This document shows positions 10,280 to 24,055 of a stretch of 64,000 bases of DNA, piece after piece. The number at the start of each line of letters is the position of its first letter. Within the stretch, counting starts at the first letter, position 1. The position numbers were made by a program, and so were the translations under genes. The notes beneath the pieces were generated by a model. It worked only from the letters and a program-made list of their open reading frames with translations, was not told the DNA's origin and ran no database searches. The stretch is from Nitrospira sp. (lineage in GTDB: Bacteria > Nitrospirota > Nitrospiria > Nitrospirales > Nitrospiraceae), in assembly GCA_041742455.1 (NCBI GenBank), contig JBGSIO010000145.1, positions 9,335 to 73,334 on the forward strand, written 5' to 3'.

Positions 10280-13200
10280 TTACTTCATCGCCGTCGGAAT
10301 AACCTGAAGTTGCTCCTCGGCTTCCGCGTGCTTGGAACCGACTCCACCAGCGCTCAGCGGCTGGAGCCGCTTGTCGCCACTTGGCAGAACTCGCAGATAG
10401 CCCCATTGCCCAGACTGCGAATATGGCAACCGCTGGTTGCTGTATACATAGTCGCCAGACATCCGGTAGGGACCTCCGGCCGAAGGGATAAATACATCGA
10501 GGGTTTCAGATCCGGAGAACTCCACGACACTGATCTGGTCCGCGCCTCGCATAAATGGCTCGATCGGCCATTCATGTTTTTCGACGCCGAACATGCCGTT
10601 CTGTTCATTGTTGACGCCGATAACATGGATGCGCACCGGATCGCCGGCATGTGATTCGATGATAGGTGTTGCCGGATCTTCAGGATTGTCCGCCTTGCAA
10701 GGCTGGAACATCTTCCCGAGTGAACAACCCTGCTCTTCCCGGTATAAGTATGGTTCAGACCGGTAGTTGATTCCGGTTAAACCCGCGACATTCTGCACAT
10801 ACGGCATGAAGCTCGTGCCGATGATGTTATCCTCGTCTTGGAAAAACAAGGCTACATCCCGATAGTTCGGACGCATTTCGTTTCCAGGGACAGACCGATC
10901 CACGATTACGTCGGCCGCCCAGGCATTCTTGTTCGACAGATCGACACCGGTCTTAGGATCCCGATACTTCGATCCCTTCGGACCGACAACAATCGCACCG
11001 AACAAGCCGTTCCTTGGATTTGTCATCACATTGCCCCAGTCCCAGACAAGTGAGGTCGTCTCACCGTTGAACGGATCGGCATAGTAGGTGTAGACCCGTT
11101 CACTACCTGGAACGATCGTCTGATCGCCGGGATTATTTCCGACATTGGCTCCCATTGAATCCTTGGGATCGAACGCGAGTCCAATCGCGGAGAATGAAGC
11201 CTTACTGTCCTTCATCTTATTCTTGAGATTAACCTTGACGCAGTCACCAATATTCACCCGAAGCGTCAGTGGCATAGGTCGCGAGTTTCCAGACACCTTC
11301 GCCACCTCGTCCTCCAGCGCATAAATTCTCGCATCTGGATTGGCGACCTGTATCTTCCGCTCAAAATCGACCTCAATGGCTTCCGGAGCCTTCGGATTAA
11401 AGGTCATCGACGGATAGTCCATCGCGACCACATTGAAGCTCTTGACCGGGGCATCGGCTGGGCACACCGGCAAGGCCTTTGGGATCTCCCCTTTATTGGA
11501 GAATCCCGCCGGCAATTTTTTCAGATCGGGTTGTTCCTTGTCATACACCCGGAGAATTCCCCATCCACCTTCCGACAGCTTTGAGGATCGGCCGTTAAAG
11601 TGGATAAAATCTCCCGCTTGATGACGAGGACCACCAGCCTCCGGCACCACCAAGTCATACCGTTCGGCAATGCCGATATGGATGGAGTTCTTCCGGTTGG
11701 CATCAGGCGCATACCGTTCTGTCCAGAATGTATGGCCTGATAAGGTCCACGTCATTGTTTCGTTCATGAGGGTATGCAACAGTCGGAACACCATGGTGTC
11801 GCCCGTGTACGCCCGCAGAAGCGGCGTATAGGGGTCTCCATGGATCTGGCTGTTGAAGATTTGCGAGACATCCGGATTCGTCGCCAAACGCTGGGCGATT
11901 GGTCCCGCCCGGAAGTTCAGGCCACTTCCGGTGGTGTGTGTTCCGCCGTTCAGGAACGGCATCGGAGTCATATAAATCTTTTCCGGCATGGCGAAGGACA
12001 CGGTCTTCCCTGCCTCCAAAGCCACCTCAATGGGCTGACCAGGAGGATTCCCTGCCGTCACAATATTCACGGTATGCGGCACCGTATCATGTACCTGAAC
12101 CATGAGTTCACGGAAGCTGTTATTCACCCCATGCCCCACGGGCTCGTTGGTATGAATATCCGCGATGGGACCGCTGCGGATTTGTTTCCCTGTCGTTGGA
12201 TCGTGGTAGGTCGATCCCACCGGTTCGGCGATAAACGTCCCGAATCCACCGTGTGGCCACGTCGTGGCTCCGAATGCGTGGTCGTGCCAAAACACGGTTC
12301 CCACGTCCGCATCCACCCAGAACCGTTGACGGACAAACTCTACCGTCACGATGTCCTTTGCTGGGTGATCGTTCTTTAACCCCTTGGACAGGGTAATCTG
12401 ATTGCCCTTGATGGCCTTGATACGCGCGATCTCATTGCCCTTTACGTTATCGGCTCCGACCATGATCAAGGTTCCGACGTGATACTGTTTGGCATTCTTC
12501 ACCGAAATCGTATTGGCCCCTTTCTTCACAGCCGAGGTCAACACGGTATTCATCGGGGCAGGAAGCCCCTTGGGATTCTTCTTCTCGAGCATCGTGAACG
12601 GACGGACCGATTGCTCGTACGAGAATCCGGTGATCACACCGTCTGATGCCTGATTGTCGAACTGCAGGAAGTGCCAATGCGTGTTGATCTTCGACGCCTG
12701 GAAATTGGTGTAGTCGTCGTCATCCCACTCACTGGTCAATGTCCAGTCCACACAATCGTAAATATTGCCGCGCACGACCAACGGATACTTGAGATCGTCG
12801 TTGGCGCGAATCGCCGCTTCCTCTTCGTGCAACACGTAGATCAGACCGTTCTGATCGATCACCGCTGGCTCCTTACCTTGAGCCTTGGCAATTTTGATCG
12901 GCACCTTGATGAAATGAACATTGAAGCTCTTCCGTCCAGCATTGGTCGGACAGAGACTCCAATTCCCCTGCTCACCAGGTTTGGCTTGATCGAGGCTCTC
13001 TTCTCCATTGTCGTCACGCCGGATCATCTCCAACCATGGCGCCCCGACGTGATTCGGAGAAAACATCACGCGTTTTCCAAAGTGCGGGGTGAGATGTGGC
13101 CAGGCCACCTTCCCGGTCAGCGGCTCAAACATGATCGGGTGCCGCTTGCCCGGATGGGGCGACACGTACTTAGGATTCTCAATGGTGCTTTCTTTTTCGC

Positions 13201-15109
13201 TCATCGCACGACTGCCTTCCCACGTCCAATCCAACACCGTGGCATCATACGAGACGATCTGGCCCTTCTCATCATCCTTATGGCCAGGCTTCCCAGCTGG
13301 CGGCAACTGCATCGCGACCCAATCCTTGACTGTGATGGTGGCCGGATTTCCCTTCCAGTTGCTCTTCCCCTTCTCGATGATCTTGAATTGGGTCCCGAAC
13401 CAGTCAACGGTCTGCCCGACCAACTTATCGGACGAAATCGGTTCTTTTATACGACCTTTCCGATCAGGCAACTCACGCAGATCCGGCATCACATCATTCC
13501 GCAGGTCACCCTGCTGGATCGTATTGTACACGCGCCAGTAGCCCCACATGCCGGACACATAGTGATGCGCCACATGGCAATGGAACAGAAAATCGCCGGC
13601 CAGCTGTTGGCAAAGACCGGAGCCGCACTCCGTTTCCAGATCCAAGGCTTCCGATGGGCCGATGACTTCTACGTCGACACGATCCGTCTTGTGACGAATA
13701 ACAGGATACTTGACTGGACCATTCATCGCCGTGGCCCAAAGGTTCATATCATCAATGGCCCTCGGACTCCTCGGCCATCGGATGGATCCACCATGCGGAT
13801 GATGGCTATGGAACACTTCTGACCCGCCATGAACAAGGCGAAACTTCGCTGGGTCTCCGATGTAGGATCGAGGAATTGTGGGAGAGGCATCGCCGAAGGT
13901 ATAGGAGCTATACCCCATCGACTCATCCTCAAAACCAAAATATTCATGCTGCAAATGCATATTATTGATGCCGAACGGCTCACTGCGATAATTGATCGCG
14001 CGGCCACCAGGACGATAGGTATCGGTCAACGGATCACGTTGAGGCAAGAAATCGCCCTTCTTGTTGAGCGGGCGGAAGGCTTCGTCGCCGACTTCATGGT
14101 AATACAAGACGAACTCCCGGAAGTCCGGACCGGTCCCATTCTTGATCATGACTTGCCAGCCACTCGTGGCCGGAGTCGCATCTCCCGTTCCGAGCGGCTC
14201 CCAGTATGTTGAGCCGCGAGGCTCCACAACGAAAGACCCGAACATTCCCATGACGGTCAGTTCGCGATCGTTGCTATAGGTGTGGAACTGGCGAACTCCC
14301 TCCTGCGTGTTGGGATGGATATACCATTCCAAGTCCACGGACTTGTCTTTGCTGGCGATGGCATCAGAATTCGTCGTGATTGCCGCAGCGCCTGTCTTAC
14401 TCACAACCGTCGACGAGCCATGAATGTGAAGGCTGACGTCCTCGCCGCCTTCCAATTTGTTGCTCAGCTTGATCTTGACACAGTCTCCCTGATTCGCACG
14501 AAGCGTCAGTGGCTGAATCCACTGCGCTTGTACGCCCGGGATCACGGCCCCAGGATCGAACCCGTCCTTATCGCGTGCTTCACGATTCGTCGTTTCTTCG
14601 GCTCTGACCTTGTCGATATCCTCATCCAGCACATACATGTATCCCGGATAAAAATCGAGCCACTGGTTGAGCGTGATCTCGACATTGATCGCAGAGACAT
14701 TGTACTGCTTCACCGGCGCAGTTGCGGGACACTTGCCTCCTCCGGTCGCAGCCACCGGTTCGACCCGAGGATCGGACATGAGCAACATATCCTGCCCGCC
14801 GGCTCCGTACTGGTGCATCATGGTCGACGTGTTGTACATGCCTGTGTTGACCGCCTGGACCTGCGGATCCTTGGACATATGGTCCATGATGCGCTGGTGT
14901 TGCTGCTCGACCATCGCGGACCGTTCGCCTCTTCCTGACATGGCGTCCTCGACGATCGTCTGCCCTTTGAGCTGTTCCGCCCAAGCCGGCAGCTGATGGT
15001 TCATCGCAACATGAGAGGGACTCTCGGCGGTCACCAGTGCCGGCATAGCCAACAACGCCATGCCCGCAAGCCCTCTTAGGACTCTGGTTGATGGTGAATG
15101 GAAATACAT
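10280..15109 (-). CDS. Large (1,609 aa) exported multicopper oxidase, MnxG-like motif order
   Basis: HSHHPHG, HCHVAHHYVSGM (T1 C/H/M), THWHF and FWHDH, plus LHIHG in domain 1; signal peptide. Confidence 0.9.
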   Translation of the reverse strand: MYFHSPSTRVLRGLAGMALLAMPALVTAESPSHVAMNHQLPAWAEQLKGQTIVEDAMSGRGERSAMVEQQHQRIMDHMSKDPQVQAVNTGMYNTSTMMHQYGAGGQDMLLMSDPRVEPVAATGGGKCPATAPVKQYNVSAINVEITLNQWLDFYPGYMYVLDEDIDKVRAEETTNREARDKDGFDPGAVIPGVQAQWIQPLTLRANQGDCVKIKLSNKLEGGEDVSLHIHGSSTVVSKTGAAAITTNSDAIASKDKSVDLEWYIHPNTQEGVRQFHTYSNDRELTVMGMFGSFVVEPRGSTYWEPLGTGDATPATSGWQVMIKNGTGPDFREFVLYYHEVGDEAFRPLNKKGDFLPQRDPLTDTYRPGGRAINYRSEPFGINNMHLQHEYFGFEDESMGYSSYTFGDASPTIPRSYIGDPAKFRLVHGGSEVFHSHHPHGGSIRWPRSPRAIDDMNLWATAMNGPVKYPVIRHKTDRVDVEVIGPSEALDLETECGSGLCQQLAGDFLFHCHVAHHYVSGMWGYWRVYNTIQQGDLRNDVMPDLRELPDRKGRIKEPISSDKLVGQTVDWFGTQFKIIEKGKSNWKGNPATITVKDWVAMQLPPAGKPGHKDDEKGQIVSYDATVLDWTWEGSRAMSEKESTIENPKYVSPHPGKRHPIMFEPLTGKVAWPHLTPHFGKRVMFSPNHVGAPWLEMIRRDDNGEESLDQAKPGEQGNWSLCPTNAGRKSFNVHFIKVPIKIAKAQGKEPAVIDQNGLIYVLHEEEAAIRANDDLKYPLVVRGNIYDCVDWTLTSEWDDDDYTNFQASKINTHWHFLQFDNQASDGVITGFSYEQSVRPFTMLEKKNPKGLPAPMNTVLTSAVKKGANTISVKNAKQYHVGTLIMVGADNVKGNEIARIKAIKGNQITLSKGLKNDHPAKDIVTVEFVRQRFWVDADVGTVFWHDHAFGATTWPHGGFGTFIAEPVGSTYHDPTTGKQIRSGPIADIHTNEPVGHGVNNSFRELMVQVHDTVPHTVNIVTAGNPPGQPIEVALEAGKTVSFAMPEKIYMTPMPFLNGGTHTTGSGLNFRAGPIAQRLATNPDVSQIFNSQIHGDPYTPLLRAYTGDTMVFRLLHTLMNETMTWTLSGHTFWTERYAPDANRKNSIHIGIAERYDLVVPEAGGPRHQAGDFIHFNGRSSKLSEGGWGILRVYDKEQPDLKKLPAGFSNKGEIPKALPVCPADAPVKSFNVVAMDYPSMTFNPKAPEAIEVDFERKIQVANPDARIYALEDEVAKVSGNSRPMPLTLRVNIGDCVKVNLKNKMKDSKASFSAIGLAFDPKDSMGANVGNNPGDQTIVPGSERVYTYYADPFNGETTSLVWDWGNVMTNPRNGLFGAIVVGPKGSKYRDPKTGVDLSNKNAWAADVIVDRSVPGNEMRPNYRDVALFFQDEDNIIGTSFMPYVQNVAGLTGINYRSEPYLYREEQGCSLGKMFQPCKADNPEDPATPIIESHAGDPVRIHVIGVNNEQNGMFGVEKHEWPIEPFMRGADQISVVEFSGSETLDVFIPSAGGPYRMSGDYVYSNQRLPYSQSGQWGYLRVLPSGDKRLQPLSAGGVGSKHAEAEEQLQVIPTAMK

Positions 15110-15338
15110 GGACCGACCTCCTTAAGAAAATAAGTACGAGATCGACTGAGTCCGCTGCTCAGTCCGTCTCGGATGCTCCGCCCTAATTTGAAGAATAAGA
15201 AGACAAAGCAATATCGATTGCACAGAAAAGCCCTAAAAAAGAGACGTACTCATCTTCAAACGATAAGGACTGCAAGATACTGAACTTCACATTGAGTGTC
15301 AAGGTTCTGCAGGTGGAGATCGCTCTCTAGACGGGCAA

Positions 15339-17093: not shown

Positions 17094-20000
17094 CTATTTC
17101 ATGGCCGTCGGCATAACCTGAGGCTGCGGTGTCTCATCCGCCCGCTTAGCCCCCACACCACCCGCACCGAGCGGTTGGATCCGCGTATCACCGACAGGCA
17201 ACACACGGAGGTAGCCCCATTGTCCTGATTGCGTGTAGGGCAGTCGTTGATTCGACCAGACGAAGTCTCCAACTTGACGATACGGGCCGCCCGCACCGCC
17301 ACGTAGGAACACATCCAGTATTTCAGAGCCGGCATACTCGACCACACTGATCATGTCGGCTCCTGGCATATAGGGCTCGATCGGCCACTCGTGACCTTCG
17401 ATCCCAAACATGCCGTTCTGCTCACTGTTGGCGCCGATCAAGTGAATCCGAATCGGATCACCGGCATGGGCCTCGATCAACGGCGTCACCGGATCTTCGG
17501 GCTTCTCCACGACGCAGGGCTGGAAGATCTTGCTCAAAGAGCAACCTTGATTCTCGCGGAACAGATACGGCTCGGCCCGATAATTGACCGAGGTCAGGCC
17601 CGCGACATTTTGTACGTACGGCATGAATGAGGTCCCAATGATGTTGTCCTCATCCTGGAAGAAGAGGGCCACATCACGGTAGTTCCGCTTTCCAACGTTC
17701 TCAGGAAGGCTGGCATCAACGATCACGTCAGCCCTCCAGGCGTTCTTCTGAGAAATATCGGCTCCGCTCACAGGATCCCGGTACTGAGACCCTCGTGGAC
17801 CGACGATGACCGCGCCGTACAATCCATTGCGTGGATTGACGACGATGTTCCCTCCATCCCACACCAGTGATGTCGTCTCCTTATTGGCCGGATGCGCGTA
17901 ATAGGTGTAGGCGCGCGCTTCGCCTGGGGCCACGGTCTGATCACCACCGTTGTTGCCGACATTAAGCCCCTGGCTATCCTTCGGATCGAAGGCCAAGCCT
18001 GGCGCAAAGAACGACGCTCGGCTCGCCTTCATTTTGTTCTTGAGATTGACCTTGATACAGTCGCCAAGGTTGACCCGCAACGTCAGTGGGTGCGGGGTCT
18101 TGCCGCCGGAAACCGTCATCGCCTCTTCCTCGAGCGCGAAGATCTTGCCCTCCGGTATGGTCAGTTCGATCTTCCGCTCGAAATCCACCTCGATGACGTC
18201 CGGCGATTTCGGATTGAGCTTCATGGGCCGATCGACCGCCACGACGTTAAAGCTCTTCACCGGTGCATCCGCCGGGCAGACGGAACCAGGAGTGGCCGGA
18301 ATACTGAGGGGATTTGTGCCCTTCGGTAACGGCTTCAGATCGGGCACCTCCTTATCGAGCACCCGCACGATCCCCCAGCCACCTTCGGCAAAATGCGAGG
18401 TACGCCCGTTGAAGTGGATATAGTCGCCCGGCATTCCCTGAAATCCGCCGGCCTTGGTCACAAGATCGTATCGTTCAGCAATCCCGACGTGAATCGAGTT
18501 CTTCCGGTTGGCATCTGCCGCATACCGTTCGGTAAGGAACGTATGCCCAGAGATCGTCCAGACGTGGGATTCATTCATCAGCTGATGCAGCAAACGGAAC
18601 ACCATCGTATCGCCTGTATAGGCCCTCAGCAGAGGGGTATCCGGATCCCCATGAATCGCGCTGCTGAATAGTTTCGAGGTATCCGGATTATTCGCCAACC
18701 GTTGGGCAAACGGTTCCGCGCGGAAATTGAATCCACTGCCGGTCGTATGTGTGCCCCCATTGAGATATTTGTTCGGGGCGTTCAGGATCTTTTCCGGCAT
18801 CTGGAACGACACGGTTTTGCCTGCTTCCAGCGCAACTTCTACCGGTTGTCCAGGTGGATTTCCCGCCTCAATCACGTTGACCGTGTGCGGCACCGTGTCG
18901 TGGATCGAGACCATCAACTCGCGGAAGCTGCCGCTCACACCGGCTCCGATCGGTTCGCTGCTGTGAATGTCCGCGATCGGACCGCTGTAGACCAACTTGC
19001 CGTTCTTCGGATCGTGATAGGTCGATCCGTACGGTTCCACGATCGTGACACCGAATCCTCCGTGTGGCCAGGTGGTAGCGCCGAACGCATGGTCATGCCA
19101 GAACACAGTCCCCATATCGACATCGACCCACCACCGATACCGGACGAACTCCGGCGAGACCAAGTCATTGGCCGGATGATGGTGCTTGAGTGGTTTGAAG
19201 AATATAATCTGATCGCCCTTGATCTCTTTAATGCGGGCGACTTCTTGACAGCTCTTGTCTCGCGGGAGAGAGGCCGTCGGATCGTTGCCTTTCTCCAAAC
19301 AATCCATACCCACCATGACCTCAGTGTTCACATGAAACTTGGTGGCACCGGGAGCCATCTGGATTTTGACCGAAGTGGCACCGGCCTTTACGGGGCTCGC
19401 TAACTTTCCCACCATCGGCGCAGGCAAGCCATGCTTGGTCTTCTTGCCCCACATGGTGAAGGGTCGAACAGACATTTCGTATTCGAACCCGGAGATAACA
19501 CCGTCCGAGTTTCCGGTATCGAACTGGAAAAAATGGGGATGGATGTTGATCTTCGACGACTGGAAATTTGTGTAATCGTCGTCATCCCACTCGCTCGTCA
19601 GAATGACATCGACACAGTCATACACGTTGGCACGAATAACCGCCGGTACTTTGAGGTCATCATCTCCTCTCGTCAACCGTTCTTCCTCGTGCAACACGTA
19701 GATCAACCCGTCCTTGTCGACGATAGGCGGTTCATTGCCTTGCTTCTTTGCCAGCGTAATCGGCAAGCGGATGAAGTGAATGTTGTAATGTTTGCGGTTC
19801 GCATTCTCCGGACAGAGACTCCACCGTCCCTGCTCGCCGGGCATGGCCGGCTCTGACGTTCTCTCACCCTTGGCGTCCTGGTGAATCGGCTCTAGCCACG
19901 GTGCTCCGTTGTGATTGGCTGAGAACGGAACACGTTTCCCAAAATGTGGCTTGAACAGCGGCCATGCCATTTTCCCCGTCGTCGGGTCGAATAGAATCGC

Positions 20001-22022
20001 CGGTCTTGTGCTGTCATCCCACTTCGCCGCCCACACATATTTGGGGTTTTGGGCCGTACTTTCGCGTTCACCCCGCGCGATGTTGCCGTCCCACTTCCAG
20101 TCCCACACGGTCGCATCATACGCGAGAATTTGGCCCTTCTCGTCGTCCGTATGCCCGGGCTTTCCCTGCGCAGGCACGAACATCTCGACCCAGTCCTTGA
20201 TGTTCACGATCGCCGGATTCGATTTCCAATTGGTCTTCTGACTCTTGTCCACAATTTTGAATGTTTTGCCGAACCAATCAAGAGTCGTCCCGATCAGCTT
20301 GTCGGACGAAACACCCAACTTCATCCGGCCAGCACGATCCGGCAGCTCCCGGAGATCCGGCATGCTGTCCGTATGGGCCGCCCCAACTTGGAGCGTATTG
20401 TAAAACCGGCCGTAGCCCCACATCCCTGCGACATAGTGGTGCGCGACATGGCAGTGATAGAGGAATTCGCCGGCCAGATGCTGACAGCCGCCACCGCCAC
20501 ATTCAGGTTCGAGGTCCAACGCTTCAGATGGACCGATGACTTCGACGTCCACACGGTCGGACTTCGTTCGGACGACCGGATATTTTACCGGACCATCCTG
20601 ACCCATCGCCCACATATTGTTTGGTTCGGTGCCAGGACTGCGCTGCCAGCGAATCGATCCGCTATGCGGATGGTGGGAATGGAATACTTCCGACCCACCA
20701 TGGACGAGCCGCCACTTGACCGGATCACCCAGATAGCCGCGGGCAATCGTCGTCGGCGTATCACCGAATGTGTAGGAGCTATAGGCCAACGATTCGTCCT
20801 CGAATCCGAAATATTCGTGTTGCAAATGCATTTGATCGATGCCGAACGGCTCACTGCGGTAATTGATCGCCCGCCCGCCGGGACGATAGGCATCCGTCAG
20901 CGGGTCGCGCTGAGGCAAGAAATCTCCCTTCTTGTTCAGGGGACGAAAGGCTTCATCTCCGACTTCGTGGTAAAACAACACGAACTCGCGAAAATCAGGG
21001 CCCGACGCATTATCGATATTCACCTGCCAGCCGCTCCTGACCTCCGGAGCAGGCCCTCCGCTTCCGAGCGCATCAAGATACCTGGCGCCTTGCGGCTCCA
21101 CGATAAAGGCCCCGAAGAGACCCAGGACCGTGAGTTCGCGATCGTGGCTATACGAGTGGAATTGACGGACGCCCTCCTGCATCTTCGGATGGATGTACCA
21201 TTCGAATTCTTGAGCCTTACCGGGCGCCACAATGGAATCGGGATTGGTCGTCGTGGCTGGTTTACCGGTAGCGCTCACAACCATGCTCGACGCTTGGATG
21301 AAGAGGCTCCCATCTTCCCCTTCCATTTGATTGCGCAGGGTCATCTTGACACATTCGCCCTGATTCGCCCTGAGGACCAAGGGTTGAATTACGTCGCCCT
21401 GTAGGCCAGTGCTGACAGCCCCCGGTTCAAAGCCGTCCTTTTCACGAGCTTCTCTGTTCTTGGCCTCTTCGGCTCGAGTTTTCTCCAGATCCTCAGTCAA
21501 CACGTACATATAGCCCGGATAAAAATCGAGCCAGCGGTTCAATGTGATTTCGATGTTGATCATCGACACATCAAACTGTTTGCTCGGCACTCCCGCGGGA
21601 CATTTCCCTCCCGAAGTCAAGACCGGCTCACCTTTGTTCGAATCCGTCATCAGAAGGAAACTACTGCCGTCCTGCCCCATGTACTGGTGCATCATCGACA
21701 TATTGTTGAAGGCACCCGACGTCTGCTGAGCCTTGGCGTCTTTTTGGGCCTGTTGTTCCAACTTTTCCATCAACCGATGGTGCTGCATCTCCATCTTTTG
21801 CGCGTTGTCGGCGCGGCCCTCGATGGCGTTCTCCACCACGGTCTGACCCTTGAGCTGTTGGGTCCAGCCTGGCATCGCCACCGGTGTGGCGTGACCTCCC
21901 TGGGACGAATGATTGGGTTCTGCGGCAAACACCGGTGCTGCCACAACACTTCCTGCGATCAGGACAGCGTGCAACATCAGCAACCGTCGCTGCCAACGCT
22001 GTAGTTGAAAGAGCGATCTCAT
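17094..22022 (-). CDS. Large (1,642 aa) exported multicopper oxidase, paralog of 10280-15109
   Basis: HSHHPHS, HCHVAHHYVAGM, IHPHF and FWHDH; collinear with oxidase 1 along its whole length. Confidence 0.9.
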   Translation of the reverse strand: MRSLFQLQRWQRRLLMLHAVLIAGSVVAAPVFAAEPNHSSQGGHATPVAMPGWTQQLKGQTVVENAIEGRADNAQKMEMQHHRLMEKLEQQAQKDAKAQQTSGAFNNMSMMHQYMGQDGSSFLLMTDSNKGEPVLTSGGKCPAGVPSKQFDVSMINIEITLNRWLDFYPGYMYVLTEDLEKTRAEEAKNREAREKDGFEPGAVSTGLQGDVIQPLVLRANQGECVKMTLRNQMEGEDGSLFIQASSMVVSATGKPATTTNPDSIVAPGKAQEFEWYIHPKMQEGVRQFHSYSHDRELTVLGLFGAFIVEPQGARYLDALGSGGPAPEVRSGWQVNIDNASGPDFREFVLFYHEVGDEAFRPLNKKGDFLPQRDPLTDAYRPGGRAINYRSEPFGIDQMHLQHEYFGFEDESLAYSSYTFGDTPTTIARGYLGDPVKWRLVHGGSEVFHSHHPHSGSIRWQRSPGTEPNNMWAMGQDGPVKYPVVRTKSDRVDVEVIGPSEALDLEPECGGGGCQHLAGEFLYHCHVAHHYVAGMWGYGRFYNTLQVGAAHTDSMPDLRELPDRAGRMKLGVSSDKLIGTTLDWFGKTFKIVDKSQKTNWKSNPAIVNIKDWVEMFVPAQGKPGHTDDEKGQILAYDATVWDWKWDGNIARGERESTAQNPKYVWAAKWDDSTRPAILFDPTTGKMAWPLFKPHFGKRVPFSANHNGAPWLEPIHQDAKGERTSEPAMPGEQGRWSLCPENANRKHYNIHFIRLPITLAKKQGNEPPIVDKDGLIYVLHEEERLTRGDDDLKVPAVIRANVYDCVDVILTSEWDDDDYTNFQSSKINIHPHFFQFDTGNSDGVISGFEYEMSVRPFTMWGKKTKHGLPAPMVGKLASPVKAGATSVKIQMAPGATKFHVNTEVMVGMDCLEKGNDPTASLPRDKSCQEVARIKEIKGDQIIFFKPLKHHHPANDLVSPEFVRYRWWVDVDMGTVFWHDHAFGATTWPHGGFGVTIVEPYGSTYHDPKNGKLVYSGPIADIHSSEPIGAGVSGSFRELMVSIHDTVPHTVNVIEAGNPPGQPVEVALEAGKTVSFQMPEKILNAPNKYLNGGTHTTGSGFNFRAEPFAQRLANNPDTSKLFSSAIHGDPDTPLLRAYTGDTMVFRLLHQLMNESHVWTISGHTFLTERYAADANRKNSIHVGIAERYDLVTKAGGFQGMPGDYIHFNGRTSHFAEGGWGIVRVLDKEVPDLKPLPKGTNPLSIPATPGSVCPADAPVKSFNVVAVDRPMKLNPKSPDVIEVDFERKIELTIPEGKIFALEEEAMTVSGGKTPHPLTLRVNLGDCIKVNLKNKMKASRASFFAPGLAFDPKDSQGLNVGNNGGDQTVAPGEARAYTYYAHPANKETTSLVWDGGNIVVNPRNGLYGAVIVGPRGSQYRDPVSGADISQKNAWRADVIVDASLPENVGKRNYRDVALFFQDEDNIIGTSFMPYVQNVAGLTSVNYRAEPYLFRENQGCSLSKIFQPCVVEKPEDPVTPLIEAHAGDPIRIHLIGANSEQNGMFGIEGHEWPIEPYMPGADMISVVEYAGSEILDVFLRGGAGGPYRQVGDFVWSNQRLPYTQSGQWGYLRVLPVGDTRIQPLGAGGVGAKRADETPQPQVMPTAMK

Positions 22023-22081
22023 ATCTCGGCCTCCTCTCCTTGGATATGGCTATGGCTTCAGACCGTGAGTTGATTGCTGTC

Positions 22082-22255
22082 GGTCGATCATCAATCGACC
22101 ATCCCCTATACGCCTATTCGGTAGTGAGCACCGGCCTCCGACTCGCATCCGGCCCCCTCTCTTTGGAGGGTAAAGAGCTGGTGAAGGGTTCCTTCTTGCG
22201 AAGGAATGGGTCATTCGGAGGCCGGTCCAAAATCACCCAGACCTTCACCAGCAAC
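22082..22255 (-). ncRNA. Candidate structured cis-regulatory RNA in the 5' leader of multicopper oxidase 2
   Basis: Perfect 11-bp helix 22242-22252/22177-22187; perfect 12-bp helix 22215-22226/22130-22141; 7-bp stem with GCAA (GNRA) loop on the minus strand; further hairpins at 22159-22177 and 22082-22100. Confidence 0.55.
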
Positions 22256-22265
22256 AATTCTTGTC

Positions 22266-22281
22266 AGCAATCACCATGCCG
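22266..22281 (-). promoter_or_regulatory. Sigma54-like promoter for oxidase 2
   Basis: Minus strand reads CGGCATGGTGATTGCT (GG-N10-GC); predicted +1 near 22255. Confidence 0.5.
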
Positions 22282-22657
22282 AGAGGAACAAGCACGCCGA
22301 TAATCGAAACTTCGTAAGGTGTGACAATGTGTTAGGTGAATGGTGGTTGTGTGCCACCGATTGAAAGGCTCAGAGGAATTATTCCGCTGATAAAGTCACT
22401 CTCAAGAGGCTATTCATGAAAATACTTAAAAATCATGAAGTTCCACTGCCTAATATGTTGGACATTACTCATCGAAGAAATGGGGCGTAACGGGGCAACC
22501 GTGGCTCTCTCGGTTTGGAGAGACTGACTAACGAATCGCCCTTTTACGTCGGAGTTCTCTGACCAAGCAAGGAAGGAACACGACGGTAGAATTTCCTCGA
22601 GCGAGAATTCACTTACTCTGCCGTCAGGAACCTTGTCGGAGGCAGTGGAGCTGCGTG

Positions 22658-23893
22658 CTAGAAGAACGCCATGCTGGCGTACGTGACGGTCGAGTTGTAT
22701 TGATCGGTAATCCCGCGATCGTAGCGGAGGACCTGCCCCTTTTCAGCTTGGATCAATCGCAGCAGGCTATAGATGGGCGAGAAGCCGGAAATGCGCCGTT
22801 GGTCGTTTTCTTTTTGAATATAGGCAGCGAAGCCGTCCGGTTTAATCTCTTCCACCTGTTTCAACATTTCCAGATCTCGTTGCATGGAGCGATGAAAAGA
22901 GAAATCGGTCGGTGGTGCACTATCGCCGTAACGAAGGCCGAGATGAGCCAACTCCCCTGCCGCAATCATGCACACGACTTTTCCAGAGGCGACGACTGTC
23001 TCCCGTAGAGTGGTAAGGAATTGTTCGACGGAGGCTCGAACGGCTGCATCGTTCAGGCTCATTGCAGAGAAGGACGACAGCACTGGGACAATCGTGAAGG
23101 GCTTGCCGACGATGGTCTGAAGGAACGGCAACTGGAACTCAATCGCATGCTCCGATTGATGAGCAATGTCCTCTTTGAAGTACTGCGGCACCAGTTCCTG
23201 TAACCGCTCCACTATCATCCGATCGGTTTGCACGACTCCTAAGGGCGTCTCGAAATCCTTGTCGGTGACGGCGAAGAGATTCTCCAGTCCCGCATGGGCC
23301 GTCCCGATGACCACATAGACATCAGGCTGCTGACACTCTTGCAGTTCTTTGTAGCCCCACGCGTATACGGATCCAGCTTGTTTGAGTTCATAGGTTGGTG
23401 CAACGATTCCCTTGATCAACTTGCCTCGATGCTCAGACGGTTTGAAATCCGGCCCCTCGCCCGAGGTAAAGAATCCATCAAGCTGTTTCTTCAACTTCAC
23501 GCCGTCGGCTTCGTAACTACGTCCTGCAAAAGCAGCCGGTCGCGTCGACTGCTGTCGATACTCCTGCCGAGCCTGCTGCCGCGCCGTCTCGGTTCTCGGG
23601 CCTTCCAAGAACAGTTTTTGTTCAAGATCTACCACCAGCTGATCCACTTTGTTCGGCAACAGGAACTCGCCGAACCGTTTCAAGTACAACGCGCCGATGT
23701 CCTGAATGGAGTGCTCTCCGTCGAAATGTTGCACAATGAAGAAGAAATTGAGCGGAAGAACAAGCTTCTCTTTGCTCAAACCACTGGGATCCCAGAGCAC
23801 GATCAACTGATCTTCACCCTGCTGAATGGGAGAAAATTGCAGATTCCGCAGGACCGGATACTGCGTGGAATCCTTGGTGATACCAGACGTCAT
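22658..23893 (-). CDS. MEMO1-family protein (AmmeMemoRadiSam system protein B-like) with a PqqD/RRE-like N-terminal domain; track start 23974 reads into a repeat, true start about 23893
   Basis: AFAGRSYEAD, DFETPLG, EHAIEFQLPFL, ELAHLGLRYGD. Confidence 0.85.
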   Translation of the reverse strand: MTSGITKDSTQYPVLRNLQFSPIQQGEDQLIVLWDPSGLSKEKLVLPLNFFFIVQHFDGEHSIQDIGALYLKRFGEFLLPNKVDQLVVDLEQKLFLEGPRTETARQQARQEYRQQSTRPAAFAGRSYEADGVKLKKQLDGFFTSGEGPDFKPSEHRGKLIKGIVAPTYELKQAGSVYAWGYKELQECQQPDVYVVIGTAHAGLENLFAVTDKDFETPLGVVQTDRMIVERLQELVPQYFKEDIAHQSEHAIEFQLPFLQTIVGKPFTIVPVLSSFSAMSLNDAAVRASVEQFLTTLRETVVASGKVVCMIAAGELAHLGLRYGDSAPPTDFSFHRSMQRDLEMLKQVEEIKPDGFAAYIQKENDQRRISGFSPIYSLLRLIQAEKGQVLRYDRGITDQYNSTVTYASMAFF

Positions 23894-23934
23894 AGCGGAA
23901 GACATTGTAGGGGATGGACTGGAGCAGCTGCAAC

Positions 23935-24055
23935 CTGAGAATGCCGCAAAACCCCGCCAGCTTCGCTCTCGCATCGCTCAAGACCTCAACGTACCAACCA
24001 CGTACGCCTCAGCCTTTCGCTCGCTGCGGCCTCGCTGGACGAGCGTTTCCAGCTC
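23935..24055. repeat. Short copy of a dispersed palindromic repeat/MITE family
   Basis: CCAGCTTCGCTCTCGCATCGCTCAAGACCTCAACGTACC and CGCTGCGGCCTCGCTGGA match the reverse complement of both ends of the 42799-43034 element. Confidence 0.75.

Follow-up and report, generated by a model that had tools for sequence, protein, structure and literature searches.

Several described bacterial leaders bring a loop of a structured RNA together with a ribosome-binding site. In the SAM-II, preQ1-II and preQ1-III riboswitches, a loop of the 5' untranslated region (UTR) structure is complementary to the ribosome site, the two together make a pseudoknot with respect to the closing helix, and no terminator takes part. 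Leaders of the ZTP type have an aptamer in two parts, connected by a variable linker and a pseudoknot. The yybP-ykoY (Mn2+) and czcD/NiCo riboswitches are cis-regulatory RNAs that precede metal-related genes. In 5' stabilisers, exemplified by the ompA 5' hairpin and the STAB-SD of Bacillus cryIIIA, structure occurs within a few nucleotides (nt) of the 5' end and the UTR contains Shine-Dalgarno (SD)-like boxes without start codons. At the level of transcription, Pseudomonas putida GB-1 produces an MnxG-type oxidase from a sigma54 promoter under an enhancer-binding protein, a precedent for sigma54 control of mnxG-type genes (PMC13689576). Here we describe a leader RNA from Nitrospira sp. that precedes the gene of a giant MnxG-like multicopper oxidase. 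It lies on the minus strand of a 64,000-nt stretch of DNA (GenBank assembly GCA_041742455.1, contig JBGSIO010000145.1, positions 9,335 to 73,334), which is the whole stretch analysed and is referred to as the window.

The Nitrospira leader shares the features named above and departs from these systems in others. An Rfam 15 cmscan of 21500-23200, run on both strands with permissive filters, returned 0 matches at E <= 10; the sequence-only reading of this DNA had likewise seen no match to cobalamin, yybP-ykoY, NiCo or c-di-GMP elements. Unlike SAM-II, preQ1-II and preQ1-III, the leader has no known ligand, its ribosome site is 150-300 nt away, its junction strands are unconserved, and the complementary site is common to several genes of the operon. 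As in ZTP leaders, its conserved core is joined through a linker, here of 13-70 nt, to a short box that is complementary to a core loop; unlike them, it lacks the box in about one third of cases, and the box itself is an SD mimic. The architecture also differs from that of yybP-ykoY and czcD/NiCo, the metal riboswitches whose role the earlier suggestion of a metal-responsive switch calls to mind. We class the leader as a new family within a known general kind of RNA, the SD-sequestering or SD-pairing pseudoknot leaders, with the unusual property that its loop matches ribosome sites across an operon. A literature search retrieved no prior description of the leader and no transcription start site (TSS) or small-RNA study in Nitrospira.

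We propose that this sigma54-transcribed leader tunes translation by pairing between its loop and SD sites, and give this reading a probability of roughly 0.55. The existence of a functional structured leader RNA is far more secure and, in our judgment, very probable.

The three-way junction and its conservation

The leader region occupies part of the 635-nt gap between a Memo-like gene (22658-23974) and the oxidase gene. Its core is composed of the following elements.

22173-22254, minus strand: three-way junction core (P1, P2 and P3), 82 nt, from the covariance model and conservation
22242-22252, minus strand: P1 5' arm GCUGGUGAAGG, pairing with 22177-22187 in 11 perfect pairs
22177-22187, minus strand: P1 3' arm CCUUCACCAGC, pairing with 22242-22252
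22207-22239, minus strand: P2 hairpin UGGGUGAUU/AAUGACCCA, arms 22239-22231 and 22215-22207, one G.G mismatch, 15-nt loop
22216-22230, minus strand: P2 apical loop UUGGACCGGCCUCCG, 15 nt, putative anti-Shine-Dalgarno element
22215-22228, minus strand: invariant 14-mer GGACCGGCCUCCGA in the P2 loop
22215-22226, minus strand: part of the P2 loop, ACCGGCCUCCGA, partner of a 12-nt complement in the linker
22189-22206, minus strand: P3 hairpin UUCCUUC-GCAA-GAAGGAA, variable in sequence and covarying

The element is widely conserved. Across 201 Nitrospiraceae genomes, the conserved block coincides exactly with the P1-closed junction, which is matched in 150 of them and in 29 of 39 genera, nearly always as exactly one copy. 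The covariance model was built on a MAFFT alignment of 65 distinct cores, which yields a three-helix consensus with compensatory changes in P1 and P3. Applied to 401 genomes sampled across the phylum, the model finds 82, all from the family of the window or its sister family in the same order, and gives no match outside these two families.

The helices are maintained by compensatory change. In an alignment of 87 distinct sequences to the model, standard pairs fill 97.4% of pair cells, and two-sided changes are seen in 17 of the 19 pairs; slid controls are 37-59% paired, and none of 500 shuffles reaches the observed values. These counts lean toward the model because the alignment was fitted to it, and an independent MAFFT/RNAalifold run agrees in direction, with 9 of 22 pairs covarying. 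P1 shows two-sided changes in 10 of its 11 pairs, with 99.4% of cells paired in the same 87 sequences. The outermost pair of P2 is U-A, C-G or A-U depending on the genus, and its internal mismatch is a conserved purine-G (G.G or A.G in 54 of 65 sequences). All five modelled pairs of P3 carry compensatory changes, and 52 of 91 sequences have a GNRA tetraloop there. Sequence and length both differ among leaders in the junction strands J1/2, J2/3 and J3/1.

The structure can also be assigned to a strand. Departures from Watson-Crick pairing are mostly G.U, and the covariance model scores the single copy in the window at 105.8 bits on the minus strand versus 22.8 bits on the plus strand, which together indicate that the structure belongs to the mRNA-sense strand. 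On the comparative evidence, we conclude that the junction is a real, conserved RNA and that chance is excluded. The claim that an unannotated structured RNA stands at the 5' end of the oxidase mRNA is thereby borne out: every helix described for the minus strand of 22082-22281, the loop complement and the sigma54-type box are present, and orthologous leaders show the conservation and compensatory changes expected of them.

This evidence bears on a deflationary explanation, in which the signals would amount to chance complementarity, a mobile repeat or a DNA-level operator. The RNAfold minimum-energy fold of the leader is the three-way junction, and its folding energy is weakly better than that of shuffled sequences (z = -2.15, with -2.38 for the other strand). 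Such a modest score, similar on both strands, leaves the single-sequence fold alone not above chance and is what this explanation has in its favor. It is refuted by the order-wide conservation, by compensatory and G.U changes specific to the mRNA strand and by copy number. A BLAST search of the leader against its own 3.85-Mb assembly gave no significant match besides the locus itself, and a single-copy element is not a dispersed repeat. A miniature inverted-repeat transposable element or other dispersed repeat was rejected on the same ground, most genomes also carrying one copy. We regard the deflationary explanation as close to impossible.

The element is tied to one gene. At every locus examined it lies upstream of an orthologue of about 1600 amino acids (aa), 150-390 nt before it and on the sense strand. 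All family genomes tested that have a high-identity orthologue carry the leader directly upstream of it, with the single exception of genome G034, which is discussed below. The leader is absent from genomes with only a paralogue of about 67% identity, one of which is complete and belongs to the same genus.

Some loci depart from the simple arrangement. Locus L074 (G154:C8:128620-146853) has two full-scoring leaders 9 kb apart, at positions 1999 and 11110; each precedes a high-identity oxidase copy, and the second leader is about 750 nt long. At L114 (G314:C1:1093613-1100691), in a sister-family genome of small size, a degenerate loop (GGAGCGGCUCC) goes with the ribosome site CGAGGCCGG and with an oxidase reading frame that ends after 214 aa. 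Leader and gene seem to be decaying together. A second oxidase locus in some genomes (L117-L120, L123-L125) has two further, divergent leader types. The first sits behind a sigma54 box. The second is intercistronic and without a box, starts with UGUCUGGUGAAGG and has a loop ending in CCUCCUGA.

The promoter and the oxidase gene

The gene and promoter on either side of the leader are as follows.

17094-22022, minus strand: gene behind the leader, MnxG-like giant multicopper oxidase, 1642 aa, exported, with Pfam Cu-oxidase domains
22267-22280, minus strand: sigma54-type promoter box GGCAT-GGTGA-TTGC (-24 GG / -12 GC), predicted TSS at about 22255

The oxidase matches the Mn oxidase MnxG (PDB 9bxa) at E = 3.4e-84 and by this homology is a clear MnxG relative. 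An orthologue is present in 198 of the 201 Nitrospiraceae genomes, which makes it a core gene, and the first 500 aa are 72-99% identical among family orthologues. The orthologue of N. moscoviensis, NITMOv2_3987 (NZ_CP011801 3757742-3762682), is annotated as of unknown function, and its leader, at about 3762835-3762917 on the minus strand of NZ_CP011801, scores 98.2 bits with the covariance model. During growth on nitrite, NITMOv2_3987 ranks 19th among all coding sequences by RPKM (PMC6606698 Table S1). Published mention of the oxidase is limited to an mnxG-like gene of unproven function that all Nitrospira metagenome-assembled genomes (MAGs) carry; a role in the oxidation of Mn or Fe is considered possible and is under debate (bioRxiv 10.1101/2024.12.25.630300).

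The sigma54-type box predicted earlier in front of the leader recurs in most homologous leaders. The box at 22280-22267 has GG at -24 and GC at -12, spaced as in TGGCAC-N5-TTGC, and a box of the form GG(C/T)A(C/T)-N5-(T/C)TGC stands upstream of P1 in 84 of 93 homologous leaders. The distance from the -12 GC to the start of P1 is 13-14 nt in 82 of these 84, and from this fixed spacing the RNA should begin about 2 nt before P1. The exceptions are mainly seven divergent leader copies between the genes of the second oxidase locus, which are presumably transcribed from further upstream. Two sigma70-like promoter matches, at 22405-22378 and 22327-22300 on the minus strand, lie upstream of the sigma54 box and agree with the consensus at 10/12 and 9/12 positions. 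A nearby sigma54 activator was sought for a hint of the signal: of the 23 genes for enhancer-binding proteins in the genome, none lies on the contig; in this respect, and because no structured leader is reported there, the locus differs from that of P. putida GB-1.

A junction placed at the 5' end of the oxidase mRNA is a candidate for cis-regulation. The same position raises the possibility that the leader is mainly a stabiliser, whose tight 5' fold and ribosome-holding SD-like boxes protect a long, highly expressed mRNA from 5'-end-dependent decay with no switching involved. P1 begins about 2 nt behind the predicted 5' end, the mRNA measures at least 5 kb, and the transcript rank of the N. 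moscoviensis orthologue is consistent with high expression. The linker also contains SD-like boxes without start codons that resemble STAB-SD elements. A stabilising hairpin nevertheless has no need of an invariant 14-nt loop and does not require complementarity between that loop and the ribosome sites of the operon. P2 and P3 would in principle be dispensable to it, yet both are kept by compensatory change, and the three covarying helices together with the loop set the leader apart from ompA and STAB-SD. We consider pure stabilisation very improbable.

The P2 loop, ribosome-binding sites and decoy boxes

The most constrained part of the leader is the P2 loop. Its 14-mer GGACCGGCCUCCGA is identical in 76 of 92 leaders from the two families and has one occurrence in the 3.85-Mb genome. 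Part of it is complementary to the site from which the oxidase would be translated.

22027-22034, minus strand: extended Shine-Dalgarno site GGAGGCCG of the oxidase, perfect 8-nt complement of the loop segment CGGCCUCC

Of 92 leaders, 70 have GGAGGCCG as the oxidase ribosome site and 81 have GGAGGCC, and in 60 leaders 7 nt separate GGAGG from the start codon. Before long open reading frames of the same genome, GGAGG sites extend to GGAGGCCG in only 8 of 628 cases (1.3%) and to GGAGGCC in 29 of 617 (4.7%); these and the following ribosome-site statistics are uncorrected for phylogenetic relatedness. The low genome-wide rates indicate that the CCG extension is not a property of the ribosomes of this organism, and a lineage-specific anti-SD sequence as the cause of GGAGGCCG was rejected on these statistics. 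The 3' end of the 16S rRNA was also sought in the assembly for a direct check of the anti-SD and was not found. Complementarity between leader and ribosome site is thus conserved beyond the generic SD (70/92 versus 1.3%), with the loop segment CGGCCUCC invariant.

The match extends to genes further down the operon. In 16 genomes, 13 of the 28 GGAGG sites before downstream operon genes read GGAGGCC, against the 4.7% background (binomial p = 1e-10, uncorrected for shared ancestry). The genes marked in this way encode a cupredoxin-like protein, the second FGE-sulfatase-like protein and an oxidase paralogue. In the window, the paralogue (10280-15109) has a site that could pair with the same loop.

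15113-15121, minus strand: ribosome-binding site GGAGGUCGG of the second oxidase paralogue, 9 possible pairs with the leader loop, one of them G.U

The search for a similar leader before this second oxidase gave none, and only its ribosome site resembles the motif. The content of the operon is itself conserved (L206-L221, 16 genomes) and comprises the oxidase, the cupredoxin-like protein with a CGFHAYM motif, two FGE-sulfatase-like proteins and a porin-like protein.

Where the loop varies, pairing is mostly retained through wobble changes or a shifted register. The variant loop ending in CCUCCUGA pairs with the site UCAGGAGG, and the loop CCGGCUUCC pairs with GGAGGCUGG. A palindromic, kissing-dimer role of the loop was considered and dropped, CCGGCC not being self-complementary.

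Between the junction and the ribosome site, the linker of the window offers the loop further partners.

22150-22158, minus strand: decoy SD-like box B, GGGGGCCGG, 9 pairs with loop segment CCGGCCUCC, one of them G.U, -21.3 kcal/mol
22130-22141, minus strand: decoy SD-like box C, UCGGAGGCCGGU, complementary to the loop over 12 nt without a mismatch, 73 nt after it, -27.5 kcal/mol
22155-22170, minus strand: hairpin CCCUC-CAAAGA-GAGGG, whose 5' arm is a second CCUCC box and whose 3' arm overlaps box B
22082-22100, minus strand: hairpin GGUCGAUUGAUGAUCGACC, predicted fold

Such complements are a recurrent feature of the linkers. A complement to the loop of at least 8 nt is found in the linkers of 44 of 92 leaders versus 1.7 in shuffled linkers, and (G)AGGCCGG boxes are found in most genera. 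About one third of leaders have no pseudoknot box. Boxes B and C are lineage-specific, box C being limited to some genera (g1, g2, g11 and g31), and box B lies half-buried within the 22170-22155 hairpin. Box B, box C and the ribosome site are each able to pair with the loop; all loop:box pairings are pseudoknots relative to P1 and would be mutually exclusive. The sequence-only reading had taken the mid-leader complement as the counterpart of the loop. The perfect 12-nt complement is indeed there, but it occurs only in some genera, and the conserved partner of the loop is the ribosome site. As far as sequence can tell, box C is a lineage-specific decoy copy of that site.

The two further hairpins noted earlier fared similarly, in that both are present in the window but the one at 22082-22100 is kept only in the three closest genomes (L001, L009 and L010). 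Hairpins related to that at 22155-22170, with altered arms, occur in other genera as judged by eye. Many leaders (e.g. L038, L040 and L041) have, about 20-60 nt before the start codon, a conserved block UCAACCA-CCGCC...GGCGGG-AUAACAGGGG, which in many genera folds into a hairpin immediately ahead of the ribosome site. Of this block, the window keeps only the (A)UCAAC part.

A conserved junction followed by a box for its loop is also the layout of a ligand-sensing riboswitch. In such a device, the junction and the loop:box pseudoknot would form an aptamer for Cu, Mn or another small molecule, and the ligand would decide whether the loop is partnered by the pseudoknot box, which leaves the ribosome site free, or by the ribosome site. 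The junction at the mRNA 5' end is well conserved and covaries, its pseudoknot partner stands behind a linker of variable length as in some known classes, and the purine-G mismatch in P2 and the nucleotides flanking the loop are conserved or invariant. The genes that would be regulated encode copper proteins homologous to an Mn oxidase, and with no Rfam match the class would be new. Most riboswitches keep a conserved ligand pocket in their junction strands. The variability of J1/2, J2/3 and J3/1 is therefore atypical, yet not excluding, and together with the box missing from about a third of the leaders it weakens the case. In addition, the operon is already predicted to be controlled by sigma54 and an enhancer-binding protein. 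We find a riboswitch rather doubtful.

Proposed translational control and its meaning for Nitrospira

The arrangement as a whole, with a junction at the 5' end, an invariant loop, matching sites across the operon, decoys and no terminator, fits an element of translational control. No terminator-like site was found in 21900-22700 (0 sites), which fits control of translation rather than attenuation and makes the 'attenuator' half of the original suggestion unlikely. A leader peptide was also set aside, since the helices vary by compensatory change; inspection of the junction, by eye only, showed no conserved start codon.

In the mechanism we propose, the mRNA of the oxidase operon would start at the sigma54-dependent promoter, about 2 nt before P1, and its first 82 nt would fold into the three-way junction, whose P2 hairpin presents the invariant loop. 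Acting as an anti-Shine-Dalgarno element, the loop could pair with the extended oxidase site and also with GGAGGCC sites that precede later genes of the operon. This pairing would limit or time translation of the operon genes. The linker decoys, GGGGGCCGG and UCGGAGGCCGGU in the window, would compete for the loop as pseudoknots and so free the true ribosome site, and release could come from these decoys or from an unknown factor. That these pairings take place in vivo, and with a repressive rather than an activating effect on translation, is our inference, as is a signal that shifts the balance between them.

Several observations weigh against this proposal. The duplex between loop and GGAGGCCG has 8 pairs and -19.0 kcal/mol, which falls only at the 5th percentile of the values obtained with this loop for any GGAGG site; the argument is one from conservation and not from energy. 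With so little variation in the loop, the loop:SD pairing is almost without true covariation. A long-leader subclade of the genus combines an invariant loop with a site relaxed to GGAGGCCA or GGAGGCAG, and in some divergent paralogue leaders the pairing does not exceed background. Genome G034, a fragmented MAG, is an exception of another kind, in which the oxidase orthologue (L229, G034:C92:3000-3700) keeps GGAGGCCG with no junction upstream. This orthologue lies about 65 nt behind a response-regulator-like gene, and the motif was not found elsewhere in the G034 genome; the locus was either rearranged or misassembled. A single loop cannot shield more than one site of the same mRNA at a time. 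Finally, the invariant 14 nt exceed what 8 base pairs need, which hints at a further partner, be it a protein, a ligand or another RNA.

The last two points lead to the possibility of action in trans, either by a protein or RNA that binds the invariant loop, with the leader as its platform, or by the leader itself as a stable 5'-derived small RNA that accumulates in excess and masks the GGAGGCC sites of several operon genes. A loop longer than its cis pairing and sites beyond the simultaneous reach of one cis loop would both make sense in these terms. An 11-bp helix closes the junction, which stands at the very 5' end, and resistance to decay may be expected of this form; the site in G034 persists without an upstream leader. 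Against action in trans, neither a processing site nor a terminator follows the junction, and the loop or its full complement occurs at no second locus of the genome. There is also no conserved adjacent gene for a candidate protein, the upstream Memo-like gene not having been examined in other genomes. We hold action in trans to be unlikely.

Translational tuning by loop:SD pairing remains the reading we prefer, and the interpretation offered by the sequence-only reading, a cis-regulatory switch controlling the oxidase, is as a whole partly supported. More tentatively, we speculate that GGAGGCC(G) is a private 'address' carried by the oxidase, its cupredoxin-like partner, an FGE-like maturation protein and the second oxidase. 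It would be read by the invariant 5' loop, acting as a new class of metal or redox riboswitch or as a 5'-derived RNA that regulates the whole operon in trans. This extension is improbable as matters stand; if true, the loop would set the output of an uncharacterised enzyme system that is among the most highly expressed in Nitrospira.

Nitrospira are the main nitrite oxidisers, including complete ammonia oxidisers, and live in soils, waters and treatment plants. To our knowledge, almost nothing is known about post-transcriptional control in these bacteria. The leader would add a structured RNA family suitable for submission to Rfam, and the match of ribosome sites across an operon to one leader loop is an unusual arrangement. 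A conserved RNA in front of the oxidase gene offers an experimental handle on when and why the enzyme is made.

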